The notes below the pieces were generated by a model, which was not told the origin of the DNA, ran no database searches, and saw nothing but the letters and a program-made list of their open reading frames with translations. Both the position numbers and the translations under genes were made by a program. This document shows positions 15,601-20,088 of a DNA stretch of 64,000 nucleotides, piece by piece (the first letter of the stretch is position 1; each line of letters starts with the position of its first letter). The stretch is from assembly GCA_963783375.1 (NCBI GenBank), contig CAWANH010000029.1:1152001-1216000 (forward strand). Reading direction: 5' to 3'. This DNA comes from Candidatus Eiseniibacteriota bacterium. GTDB taxonomy: Bacteria; Eisenbacteria; RBG-16-71-46; JABDJR01.

Positions 15601-17835
15601 CCGGACCCCCGAATCGCTTCGCGGCGCGGTGCTGGTCGCCGCTTCCGTCCGTCCCGAGGACACGGTGTTCTTGTTTCACGCGGCGGGGGTGGTCTCCACC
15701 GGGGGCGGGATCCTGAGCCACGCCGGCCTCACCGCGGTGCAGTTTCGAAAACCCGCGCTGGTGATCTCCGGCCGCTGGGAAATGCGCCCGGACGGCGTTC
15801 GCGTGCTCTGGTACCGGGTCACGAGCTGGCGGCCGGAGATCCGCACCGTGGCCGGCTTCGAGATCGAGATGCGCCGGGATCTCCGGGAGAGCGAGCACGC
15901 CCTGGCCGAAGGGGATCTGGTGGTGGTGGACGCCGAGTCGGGAAGGCTCCGGGTGCTGGGGCAGGATCGCGAGGTCCTGGCCCTGACCGAGGATCTGGCC
16001 GAGTTGGGCGAGGCCCACCGCCTTCTGGCCGGCGCCCGGGACGAGCGGGAGATTCTGGCCCTTCGCGGGCGGCGGCTCAGGGCCCGTCACCAACTGTTGA
16101 AGCTCCTGGGGCGACTCCACGATCCGATCCCGGCCCGGCACGCGGTGGAGGAAATCCTGAGCGGGGTTTCCCTGGCCACCGGAGCGGGGGCGCGGGAAGA
16201 GAAGGGACCGCTCCTCATCGCCCTTCTGGCCAACCCCTTCACCGGGGGCGCGGCGCGCGACGCGCTCCTGGCGCTCACCCGCGGGCTGGCCCGGCGGGTG
16301 GCCGTGCGGGCCGCCGAAGCGGTGCGACGGCTTCCCACCGCCGACACCCTCTTCGAGATCCTGGCCCAGCGCCTCGGCCTGGTCCGGGTCCAAAGCGCCC
16401 TGGAGGAAGCGACGGCGGCGCTCACCGCCTGCGGTCTCCCCCCCGAGTCGGCCGAACCCGCCTTCGATCTCGCCGCTTTCGACGTGGGCGCGCGGGAGCG
16501 GCTCCTGGCCATCCGAAGCGAGCAGCTCCGTGCGGTGACTGGATCCGACGCCGGCGGCCCCCGGCTCCGCCATCACCTCCGACGGCTCCGCCGGCTGGAC
16601 GCGGTGCTCGACGTCCCCGAGGCCGACCGGCGGGACGTCACCGCGCTCGACCGGGCGCTGGCCCGCCGCGACCGGGCGGTGCGGACGGGATGCCAGGGGC
16701 GCCAGGTCCTCCTCCCCGCCGAGTGCGGTTTCGAGATGAACCCCCTGATCGGCTGGAAGGCGGCGAACCTGGCCGAGGTGGAGCGGCTGATCGGACCGGA
16801 CCGGGTGCCCCGCTGGTTCGTGGTGACCCACGGCTCCTTCGCGGAGATGCTCCGAAACCCCCTCCCCCGCGGGGAACCGACGAGCGAAGGACCCCGGTGG
16901 CGCTCGGGGAGGCGATCGGCGTGGTGCTGGAACGGGCCGATCTCACCCCGGGGCAGAAGTCCCTCCGCATCCACGATCTGTGGGAGAAGGCGACCCTGCC
17001 GCCGCTCCTGGTGCGGGAGGTGACCGCGGCCTATCGCGCGCTGGCCGAGGCCCCGCCGGACGCGGACCGGGGCGGGCCGCCGTCCCCGGAGACGGAGGGC
17101 GACGAGGCCGGCCTCCCCTACGTGGCCGTCCGTTCCTCCGCGCGCGAGGAGGACGCCGAAGCTGCGGCCCGGGCCGGCGAGTTCGACACCTTCCTCTACA
17201 TCCGGGGGGTGGAGCCGCTCCTCGGATTTCTGAAGCGGGCCTGGAGCGGTCTCTGGACCGAGCGGGCAATCCACAGCCGGTCGGCGTTCGGGATCGGCCT
17301 GGAGGAAATCGGAGGGGGCGTGCTCGTTCAGCGCATCGTCCCCGCCCGGGTCGCCGGGGTGCTCCAGACCGTGAACGTGGGCGAGGACGAGCACCGGGAA
17401 ATGGTGCTGAACGCCGGGCTCGGGCTCGGGGAAGGGGTGGTCTCGGGCACGGTGGGCGCGGATCACGTGGTGGTCCGGAAGGAGGGGGACCTGGAGCATG
17501 CCCCGCTCCGTTTCCGCTACGTGACCGCGGACAAGCGGGAGCGGGTGGTTTTCGACGCCCGCACCGGGTTCGGCACCGAGCGCGTCGAATCGCTCTACCA
17601 CCAACGGCTCCGCCCCGCCCTCGAATACGTGGAACTCAGGGAGCTGGTGATCACCGCCCAACGCCTGGAAGAGGCCTACGGCTACCCCCTCGACCTGGAG
17701 TTCGCGGTGGAGGGGAGCCGGACCTGGATCCTCCAGGTGCGACCGGTGGCCACCTTTCTCTCCGCCCTCAACGAGACCCTCGAGCGCCGGCCCCTCGGTT
17801 CCACGGCCGCCGCCCTCAAGGAGACGACGCCATGA
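12692..17835 (+). CDS. Large PEP-synthase/PPDK-like dikinase, order: unknown region - phospho-His swivel - ATP-grasp; frameshift at ~16890
   Basis: GGILSHAGLTAVQFRKPALV (His at 15719); IGWKAANLAE then, in next frame, AVRSSAREED, AGEFDT, GLGEGVVSG, DLEFA, ILQVRP; start codon uncertain. Confidence 0.75.
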
Positions 17836-20088
17836 TCCGACGCGAGGATTCCCTCACCTATCACGCTGCCGGGCGCCCCGGAAAGATCGAGGTGCGGGGG
17901 ACCAAGCCCTGCCTCACCCCGCGCGAGATGCGGCTGGCTTACCTCCCCGGCGCGGCATTCCCTTCGGCGGAGATCGCCGAGACCCCGGCCGAGGTATTCC
18001 GCTACACCGCGCGCGGGAATCTGGTGGGGGTGATCACCAATGGATCCGCCGTCCCCGGCCTCGGCAACGTCGGCCCCGAGGCGGCCAAGCCCATGCTCGA
18101 GGGGATGGCGGTGCTGTTCAAGCGCCTGGCTGACATCGACGTTTTCGATCTCGAACTCGCGGTGGAGGACCCCGATCACTTCGTGGAGGTGGTGAAGGCG
18201 CTGGAGCCCACCTTCGGCGGGGTGAACCTGAAGGACATCCGCGCCCCCGAGGGCCTCATCCTCTTCGACCGGTTGAGCGAGGCCCTCCACATCCCGGTTT
18301 TCCACGAGAACCTCTACAGCTCGGCGGTGGTGGCGGGGGCGGCGCTGCTGAACGCTCTCGACCTGGTGGAGAAACGGATCGGGGAGATCCGGGTTGTGGT
18401 GTGCGGGGCGGGCACCATGGGGACCGGCTGCGTGCGGCTTTTCCTGCGCCTGGGGGTGCGGCCGGAGAACCTCCTGGTCTACGACCTCCACGGCCTCGTG
18501 CATCCGGCGCGCACCGATCTCCACGACTTCCAGCGTCTCTACGCCCGCGACCACGCCGCGCGCACCCTGGCGGAAGGACTTCGAGGCGCCGACGTGTTCC
18601 TCGGAGCCTCGGCCGCCGGAGTCCTGACCCCCGAGATGATCCGCTCCATGGGCCGCTATCCGGTGGTCTTCGCCCTGGCCACCCCGGAGCCGGAGATCGG
18701 GTACGAAGCGGCGCGCTCTAGCCGGAAGGACGTGATCGTGGCCACCAGCCTCGGCCAGGACCCGAACGCGGTGGTGGACCTGTTGAGCTTTCCCTACATC
18801 TTCCGCGGGGCACTGGACGCCGGGGCCACCCGTATCACCGAGGGCATGCTGCTCGCGGCCTCGCGCGCCCTGGCCGAACTGGCCCGGGAGGACGTGGTGG
18901 AGGAGGTGGAGCGGGCCTACGGCCACCCGCACTTCGTCTTCGGACCGGAATACCTTCTCCCCAAGGCCATCGATCCCCGGATCCTGGTGCGGGAATCGGC
19001 GGCGGTGGCCCGCCAGGCGGTGGAGGAAGGGGTGGCGCGCCACCCCCTGGCCGACGCCGCCTACCAGGAGAGCCTCGCCGTCCGCCTGGGAACCGGAAGG
19101 GAGACCCTGCGCGGGCTGATCCTGAAAGCCCGCCAGGAAAACCCGCGGGTGGTCTTTCCCGAGGGCACCAACGAGACCATTCTTCGCGCCGCGGGCATCC
19201 TGCTCGACGAGGGGATCGCCCGACCGATCCTGCTCGGCCGCGAGGACGAGGTGCGGGAGTCGATCCGCCGGCTCGGGCTCGACCTGGGCGGGGTCCAGGT
19301 GGTGGATCCGGCGAAGAGCGCGCGGGCCGAGATCTACGCGGAGGCCTACTTCCGCATGCGGAGGCCGGCGCGGGGTCATGCGGGAGGCGGCCCGCGAACG
19401 GCTGGAGCGCCGGGACGTGTTCGCGGCCATGATGCTCCACTCCGGGGACGCGGACATGATGGTGGCGGGGATCCTCGCCCATTACGCGGAGTCCCTCCGC
19501 ACCATCCTCGAGGTGATCGGGCCCGCGCCGGGGGTGAAGCGGATCGCCAGCCACTACCTGGTGCTCCTCCCCAAGGACGTCTACCTGCTGGCCGACTGCG
19601 CGGTGAACATCGACCCCGATGCCGACGAGCTGGCGGAGACCGCCCTCATCTCCGCCCGCATGGCCCGCTCGGTGGGGATCGAGCCGAGGGTGGCCATGCT
19701 CTCCTTCTCCAACTACGGGAGCGTCGACCATCCCTCCACCCTGAAGGTCCGCCGGGCGGTGGAGATCGCCCGGGAGCGGGAGCCGGGACTCATCATCGAC
19801 GGCGAGATGCAGATCGCCACCGCGGTAAACGGGGAACTCCGGCGCGAGCACTTCCCCTTCACCCGGCTGGAGAAGGACGCCAACGTGCTGGTCTTCCCCG
19901 ATCTCCAGTCCGGCAACCTCGCGCTCCAGGTGCTCCAGCACCTCGGGGAGGCGGTGCCGATCGGACCGGTCCTCATGGGCACGCGGCTCCCGGCCCACCT
20001 CCTCCAGTACGGCACCACGGTGGAGGAGGTGGTGAACCTGACCGCGGTGGGGGTAGTGGAGGCGGCGGCGGCGCGGCGCTCGGGGTAG
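17832..20088 (+). CDS. maeB: MaeB-type malic enzyme-phosphotransacetylase fusion with degenerate active site; frameshift at ~19365
   Basis: [43 protein letters not shown] domain ADCAVN, AMLSFSN, DGEMQ, ANVLVFP; ATGA overlap with upstream gene. Confidence 0.85.

Follow-up and report, generated by a model that had tools for sequence, protein, structure and literature searches.

A 64,000-nucleotide stretch of the Candidatus Eiseniibacteriota contig CAWANH010000029.1 (positions 1,152,001 to 1,216,000 of the forward strand; assembly GCA_963783375.1), called the window throughout, carries a relative of the malic enzyme gene maeB directly downstream of a gene for a giant dikinase. To judge from its sequence, this MaeB-like protein, named pseudo-MaeB here, has lost its catalytic set, so that both its malic enzyme-like (ME') and its phosphotransacetylase-like (PTA) halves are non-catalytic, and it keeps the acetyl-CoA pocket, the hook and the adenosine-binding motif of MaeB. 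With moderate confidence, we favour the view that pseudo-MaeB is an acetyl-CoA-sensing regulatory subunit of the new dikinase and that the pair acts at the phosphoenolpyruvate (PEP)-pyruvate-oxaloacetate node. Coordinates of all features are collected in Table 1, and statements on published work refer to the available portions of the papers cited.

A preliminary description of the gene had listed a catalytic Lys changed to Met within KPMLEGM, a metal-binding Glu changed to Lys within NLKDI, a metal-binding Asp changed to Asn within FHENLYSS, the change of ANP to ATP and a 12-residue replacement of TGRSDYPNQVNN. All of these are found in the sequence, with the Met, Lys and Asn codons at 18105, 18231 and 18309, the ATP motif at 18678 and the second rewritten stretch beginning at 18744. 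In alignments to Escherichia coli MaeB (Ec; 8JZO) and Bdellovibrio bacteriovorus MaeB (Bb; 6ZNG and 9KRU), M92 falls on Ec K94 and Bb K107, K134 on Ec E136 and Bb E149, E159 on Ec D161 and Bb D174, and N160 on Ec D162; Y37 (Ec Y39, Bb Y52) and D135 (Ec D137) are retained. Ec K94, E136 and D162, to which the preliminary description had pointed together with D137, are absent from every one of the 120 best homologues (identity 70-98%; residue counts given here refer to this set and leave out the frameshifted L057 and L061), whereas the canonical paralogues of these genomes have all three in 27/27 cases, so that the difference goes beyond chance. Between 18678 and 18779, the counterpart of Bb N300, an Arg and both Asn are gone and D316 is newly present. 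Both halves of the protein therefore read as non-catalytic, because the equivalents of Bb K107, E149, the second Asp of HDD, N300 and K250 are all replaced. For the PTA half, an active phosphotransacetylase was considered and rejected: such an enzyme needs Asp and Ser/Thr where Bb has V746 and Y576 (PMC7902834), pseudo-MaeB shares the non-catalytic signature of the Bdellovibrio protein with L723 (106/120) and Y551 (112/120) there, and it scores below the TIGR00651 and NF007233 cut-offs. It also stays below the cut-off of NCBIfam NF009501 (713 vs 1178 bits).

Acetyl-CoA pocket residues were mapped by hand from the alignment to Bdellovibrio MaeB and the roles given in PMC7902834, and 9 of the 12 are kept, each in 109-119 of the 120 homologues and one of them as a change from Lys to Arg. 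The site 1 residues R535, K538, Y576, R581, N616, Q683, N718, P735 and Q748 are all matched, and the counterparts of Bb T614, Y721 and K722 differ in the clade. Mutation of R535 or N718 abolishes acetyl-CoA binding in Bdellovibrio MaeB (PMC7902834), and the counterparts of both are among the residues that pseudo-MaeB retains. The PTA domains of pseudo copies resemble one another more (0.63) than do those of the canonical paralogues in the same 20 genomes (0.48). Likewise kept is the hybrid-specific hook, which Bdellovibrio MaeB needs for relaying acetyl-CoA binding (PMC7902834). In the nucleotide site, GxGxxG, D218 and R227 (Bb D233 and R242) are retained, the Lys that selects NADP through its 2'-phosphate (Bb K250) is replaced by Q234, and Bb N300 is replaced by Thr in 105/120 homologues. 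For human malic enzyme, the K362Q substitution raises the Km for NADP more than 140-fold (PMC3183043), and K362 presumably occupies the position of Bb K250 and Q234.

These changes define a clade rather than a single aberrant gene. The rewrite is common to all 120 best homologues, 119 of them full-length proteins, and 32 of 60 fetched GTDB loci fall within the clade. In trees built by FastTree and a quick IQ-TREE run (L013, L015, L055, L057 and L061 excluded), the variants form one branch with a support of 100, a stem of 0.65 and short tips, and they still do so when the PTA domain is used alone. The branch covers 8 phylum labels. Carriers are found in Acidobacteriota, Eisenbacteria, Desulfobacterota, Bacteroidota, Ignavibacteria, Verrucomicrobia, Gemmatimonadota and Alphaproteobacteria. 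Between the window and its relative L002, dN/dS amounts to 0.089, 0.068 and 0.087 for three segments, with 0.07-0.09 on either side of the frameshift discussed below, compared to 0.086 for canonical maeB and 0.07-0.21 for two further pairs. Among positions invariant in canonical MaeBs, the variants keep 156 and lose 36, with 35 of these losses in the ME half; 47 of 68 clade-specific fixed positions lie within residues 1-422. Such a pattern is not decay; it is a burst of change that later gave way to constraint. The proposal of a maintained pseudoenzyme made in the preliminary description is thus borne out by a monophyletic clade, by dN/dS values of 0.07-0.09 and by the fixation of K134, N160 and D316.

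A decaying maeB duplicate might nevertheless be suspected, given that the window copy and the upstream gene are each frameshifted. The sole frame break of pseudo-maeB is an extra G at 19363, a base that the 93%-identical relative in L002 lacks. It is also missing from contigs of three of four public sequencing runs (X1, X2 and X4, with X1 near-identical to the window; for X3 no piece is listed at this place, and no RNA run was listed as containing the sequence), and we take it as an assembly error because it is absent in L002, in these independent contigs and in the intact members of the 90% cluster. Five of the six cluster members are whole proteins of 751 residues, in agreement with the normal length of about 751 residues after one indel fix that had been claimed for the gene, and the sixth is a 218-residue fragment from this same assembly. 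The frameshift at 16875 in the dikinase gene is probably an assembly error as well. With identical substitutions recurring across the 8 phylum labels, we consider a pseudogene highly improbable for the window copy, and at the level of the clade this reading is refuted by selection, the absent frameshift and the intact homologues.

The preliminary description had also advised looking for a canonical maeB elsewhere in the genome, and one is indeed present (C28:716139-713900), 49% identical to pseudo-MaeB. Canonical maeB with every catalytic residue was found in 27 of 33 genomes searched; since the remaining six are draft genomes, a true absence from them is not established. Among 41 relatives, 7 carry pseudo-maeB, and each of these 7 also carries a canonical-like copy. 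Within and around the clade we observed several variations. The divergent member L159:10785-13031 (49% identity) has no Rossmann glycine motif and keeps the acetyl-CoA pocket motifs and a dikinase partner. A Desulfobacterota sub-branch (L009, L018 and L020) shows FNQNLY, GxGSGG and YN in place of YD, and L020 additionally has Ala at the position of K134 and no dikinase nearby. One genome (G010) holds two very similar copies of the gene pair at contig ends (L011 and L063), perhaps an assembly duplication.

The partner dikinase combines the carrier His, Lys and RSS motifs of swivel-histidine dikinases, invariant in 20/20 sequences, with an architecture of its own. Among 196 full-length members, GxK[AS]x[NH] is present in 178 and the His motif in 177, and all 177 have Leu two positions before the His. 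PEP synthase and PPDK carry a regulatory Thr at this place (PMC12167813), so the dikinase cannot be controlled at that site. A Pfam search at E 0.1 gave only PF01326 and PF00391 in 8/8 dikinases: the ATP-grasp domain ends the protein, no PEP/pyruvate-binding barrel is detected, and the first ~940 residues have no Pfam match. All NCBIfam cut-offs lie far above the scores of the dikinase. For the N-terminal 911 residues, helical repeats, a four-helix bundle and an alpha/beta domain are predicted (pLDDT 91.7); Foldseek returned no match at E 0.001, and fold comparison yielded nothing beyond generic matches to repeat and four-helix proteins (best Z 11.0, rmsd 3.7, 118 residues). An ESM Atlas search gave no usable match. 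The putative acceptor domain alone (model pLDDT 91.7) had no Foldseek match either, its best match in the fold comparison had Z 6.0 (rmsd 3.4, 97 residues) and a PDB sequence search with its profile found nothing, though blank fold searches do not establish a new fold. This domain is strongly conserved, polar and nearly confined to the present architecture, with 159 matches among 1.84 billion representatives. A domain like that of rifampin phosphotransferase (RPH) was not among the fold matches listed for the acceptor domain and N-terminal region, and no profile match to three proteins taken as RPH-like was obtained. Four proteins of a distant branch (P0376, P0377, P0378 and P0382) show the same giant architecture with 22-27% identity in the acceptor domain; a search for loci of P0376-P0378 found none. 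In another family member, P0364, Arg stands where the carrier His should be and the start of the ATP-grasp is degenerate.

The two genes are a stable pair. The 4-base overlap that couples them in the window is identical in 14 of 31 related loci, and in most others the distance is within about 30 bases. The dikinase lies directly upstream of pseudo-maeB in 32 of 33 genomes, and in the reverse direction pseudo-maeB lies directly downstream of the dikinase in 51/51 metagenome loci, i.e., all those of 80 fetched that had enough downstream DNA. Throughout the loci the dikinase alone recurs, with no third constant gene beside the pair, and a promoter and terminator scan found none. Across 17 genomes, pairwise distances of dikinase and pseudo-ME correlate with r 0.87 (0/2,000 permutations as high), as opposed to r 0.28 for dikinase and canonical ME and r 0.26 for pseudo-ME and canonical ME (171/2,000 permutations as high), which indicates that dikinase and pseudo-ME travel as a unit. 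These results bear on an alternative in which pseudo-MaeB mainly regulates canonical MaeB through mixed hexamers and the dikinase is only co-regulated. Such a role would fit the frequent presence of canonical maeB alongside pseudo-maeB (27/33 genomes and 7/7 carriers), but we hold it to be improbable, because pseudo-ME distances track the dikinase and not the canonical paralogue, pseudo-maeB adjoins the dikinase rather than canonical maeB in the examined loci, and the crossover residues of the dimer interface are rewritten.

Pseudo-MaeB likely binds the dikinase, and complex prediction points weakly in this direction. For residues 30-684 of the L012 dikinase with ME' residues 1-345, the score was 0.46, which counts as weak support, and the best of three controls reached 0.00; contacts agreed by at least 94% between runs, and the pLDDT of the partners was at least 89. 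The mark for this score is reached by 116/157 solved complexes and 2/215 mismatches, and at 0.60 or under there are only 18 of the 157 and both mismatches. Searches for a solved relative of this region of the dikinase found none, so that recall of a solved complex is less likely to explain the prediction. We envisage that pseudo-MaeB forms a MaeB-type hexamer in which acetyl-CoA at the PTA ring would drive a rotation of the outer ME' dimers as known from Bdellovibrio MaeB. With K134 occupying the metal site, the altered cleft and rim of ME' would then be where the N-terminal half of the dikinase docks, and docking would switch the dikinase on or off. Because the NADP-selecting Lys has given way to Q234, NAD(H) or an adenine nucleotide may tune this docking surface. 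The dikinase itself would pass the beta-phosphate of ATP via its His to a small molecule of the PEP-pyruvate-oxaloacetate node as acceptor, with conversion of pyruvate to PEP as the simplest guess.

The same rewritten pocket (K134, D135, H158, E159, N160, D316, Y37 and K86) might instead be a new active or acceptor site; changed chemistry, and a Lys that could stand in for the cation, had been raised as possibilities in the preliminary description. With K134, pseudo-MaeB could then decarboxylate oxo-acids without a metal, or it could hold pyruvate or oxaloacetate for the phosphohistidine of the dikinase in a two-subunit enzyme. Fixed rather than random pocket residues, the missing pyruvate-binding barrel, the known two-component dikinases HpeHI, CreHI and PpsAB (PMC12167813) and the weak complex prediction all speak for such changed chemistry. 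We nonetheless regard it as unlikely: K134 is replaced by Ser, Met, Thr or Leu in 6/120 homologues, so a structural role suits it better than a catalytic one, and the dikinase has a strongly conserved polar domain of its own that resembles an acceptor site. In addition, the Arg and Asn of TGRSD/QVNN, which we take from eukaryotic malic enzymes to bind dicarboxylates, are lost, with the last Asn of QVNN changed to Asp in 118/120, and this should disfavour dicarboxylates.

A third possibility is that the dikinase is a protein kinase with pseudo-MaeB as its substrate or adaptor, the pair phosphorylating canonical MaeB, oxaloacetate decarboxylase (OAD), PEP carboxylase or PEP carboxykinase (PEPCK) according to acetyl-CoA. 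Our neighbour scan, which covered 120 flanking open reading frames (ORFs) of GTDB loci and, for metagenome loci, 117 of 220 candidates, placed node enzymes next to the pair in 14/112 loci, namely OAD in 8, PEP carboxylase in 1, PEPCK in 2 and a MaeA-type malic enzyme in 3. This recurrence of four different node enzymes would suit a protein kinase, as would N-terminal helical repeats typical of protein-binding scaffolds (generic matches only), a PPDK already present in the genomes and a domain order like that of glucan water dikinase, whose acceptor is macromolecular (PMC13553574). Still, we find it distinctly unlikely, as the characterised relatives in the cited papers act on small molecules or glucans and we identified no new Ser, Thr or His that is conserved as a target.

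Several observations weigh against the regulatory subunit that we favour. The case for it is built from sequence, gene pairing and a weak complex prediction, the latter obtained from alignments made in this analysis, with a single copy of a domain that is normally a dimer and 655 of the 1,713 dikinase residues. Linked genes share their history, so that linkage alone would give an r of 0.87, and this value does not show contact. L020 has pseudo-maeB and no dikinase within its 20-kb region. In the pocket, the counterparts of Bb Y721 and K722 are mostly Leu and His/Gln, and Bb E544 at the hexamer interface is mostly Ala in the clade, a position that is variable in canonical paralogues too. Neighbouring node enzymes are found in a minority of loci, some of them close kin, and their counts are raw numbers without a background rate. 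Finally, PPDK above its family cut-off is already encoded in 29/33 genomes, which leaves no obvious need for another enzyme that forms PEP; on the same count we rejected the dikinase as a PPDK replacement. We treat as doubtful the more far-reaching idea of a central-metabolism switch, in which a doubly dead MaeB would be reused as an acetyl-CoA-driven rotary sensor gating a dikinase with a new acceptor fold. The dikinase would then phosphorylate node proteins, as no characterised relative in the cited papers does, or the two chains would jointly make PEP by an undescribed reaction.

Table 1. Features of the dikinase/pseudo-maeB locus (window positions; residue counts refer to homologues of pseudo-MaeB)
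Feature	Position	Strand	Remarks
Giant swivel-histidine dikinase, about 1,713 aa	12692..17835	+	Helical repeats, four-helix bundle, putative acceptor, His swivel, C-terminal ATP-grasp; start inferred from homology
Putative acceptor domain, approximate bounds	13916..14850	+	TLHGLKRYLHQ, YGNE, HPAFLR, YDKE
GGILSHAG phospho-carrier His motif, Leu at His-2	15704..15727	+	His codon 15719
ATP-grasp domain	16751..17760	+	PF01326; GWKAANL, RSS, AGEFDT, DLEF, LQVRP
Two extra bases, frameshift in dikinase gene	16875..16876	+	Absent in X2 and L002; X1 does not reach here
AAGGAG ribosome site and ATGA stop/start overlap coupling dikinase and pseudo-maeB	17818..17835	+	From sequence
pseudo-maeB	17832..20088	+	Malic-enzyme-like and PTA-like domains, 751 aa once the extra base is discounted; near-identical intact proteins P0001, P0389, P0391
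Malic-enzyme-like (ME') domain, residues 1-420	17832..19091	+	Pfam malic and Malic_M
Y37, swapped catalytic Tyr, kept	17940..17942	+	120/120
M92 replacing catalytic Lys (Ec K94/Bb K107)	18105..18107	+	M57 V34 I25 L4 of 120; K in 27/27 paralogues
K134-D135 replacing E136-D137	18231..18236	+	K 114/120, E 0/120; D135 119/120
FHENLYSS replacing FHDDQHGT	18300..18323	+	E159 111/120, N160 118/120, L161 117/120
Nucleotide-binding elements	18405..18533	+	G192 120, G194 113, G197 120, D218 115, R227 120, Q234 119 of 120
ANP to ATP and TGRSDYPNQVNN to 12-residue variant	18678..18779	+	T284 105/120, L307 107/120, D316 118/120
Hybrid-specific hook, residues 353-370, kept	18888..18941	+	11/18 columns at least 90% conserved vs 6/18 in paralogues
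PTA-like domain, Bdellovibrio-type acetyl-CoA pocket	19137..20085	+	R510, R513, Y551, R556, N592, Q660, N695, P712, Q725
Extra G, frameshift in pseudo-maeB	19363..19364	+	Absent in X1, X2, X4 contigs and L002; assembly error

The surroundings of the pair vary between genomes. In the window, genes for an FHA protein and a HEAT-repeat Ser/Thr kinase (9243-12342, minus strand) are divergent from the dikinase gene. Counting the window, 7 loci have ORFs for related kinases close to the pair, possibly reflecting generic kinase similarity. A genome of the same genus has a PEP carboxylase gene between the FHA gene and the dikinase (L003:1405-4134, minus strand), where the window has none. In L033:2909-5032 and L061:2719-4887 (minus strand), a fused 2-oxoacid dehydrogenase E1 gene, assigned by similarity in L061, is divergent from the dikinase. 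At G000:C1:110300-122900 (L062:4317-16855), two glutamate-dehydrogenase-family genes, the second split into two ORFs, are interleaved with genes for three PPDK_N-domain proteins and a metallophosphoesterase. The PPDK_N proteins have no Pfam His-swivel, one carries a receiver domain and one a nucleotidyltransferase domain. Here, too, ATP-grasp proteins resembling dikinases are paired with a dehydrogenase, a second case of this kind on which our literature search found nothing.

If our favoured reading of pseudo-MaeB as an acetyl-CoA-sensing subunit holds, the pair would be a new component, across 8 phylum labels, of the best-studied junction of carbon metabolism. Databases name the two proteins 'malate dehydrogenase (NADP+)' and 'pyruvate, water dikinase', so metabolic models credit genomes with activities that they probably lack. 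An allosteric machine such as the acetyl-CoA-driven rotation of MaeB could then be detached from the reaction that it once served and put to use in controlling a different enzyme. The pair also offers a defined two-protein system through which the acceptor could be traced for an orphan class of dikinases that lacks a clear acceptor-fold match.

Among known systems, pseudo-MaeB is closest to Bdellovibrio MaeB of clade 2 (PMC7902834, PMC12704298), with which it shares the arrangement of ME, hook, linker and PTA along the entire protein (phmmer E 1e-204) and from which it differs by its replaced catalytic residues and by a gene coupled to a dikinase. Its acetyl-CoA pocket is of the type assigned to MaeB clade 2 in PMC12704298, and the available portion of that paper describes no inactive MaeB clade. 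E. coli MaeB, of clade 1, has the same fold and length and a separate acetyl-CoA site of its own (R475, R482 and Y510); pseudo-MaeB keeps its Y39 and D137 and has lost its K94, E136 and D162. The partner shares ATP-grasp and phosphohistidine swivel (Lys, RSS, His) with PEP synthase, PPDK, rifampin phosphotransferase (for its chemistry, see PMC4844700), HpeHI/CreHI/PpsAB and glucan water dikinase. It differs from PEP synthase and PPDK in having no pyruvate-binding barrel and Leu for the regulatory Thr, and its order of acceptor, His and ATP domains is that of glucan water dikinase (PMC13553574). Its acceptor domain gave a weak colinear profile match (probability 20%, E 0.0011, 178 columns), outscoring 20/20 column shuffles, to the C-terminal TLHD domain of deltaproteobacterial PEP-synthase-like proteins with ATP-grasp and His, and this is only suggestive of homology. 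These proteins differ in domain order and size (about 820 residues) and belong to an uncharacterised family. In HisZ, which controls HisG, and the inactive GdhA of Thermus, a dead metabolic paralogue senses a metabolite and controls its partner. Their folds are unrelated to that of pseudo-MaeB, whose own partner is an unrelated orphan enzyme that it is predicted to bind. A full-text literature search, to which subscription journals were largely inaccessible, found no paper describing the clade or its pairing with a dikinase. Pseudoenzyme regulatory subunits as such are already known.

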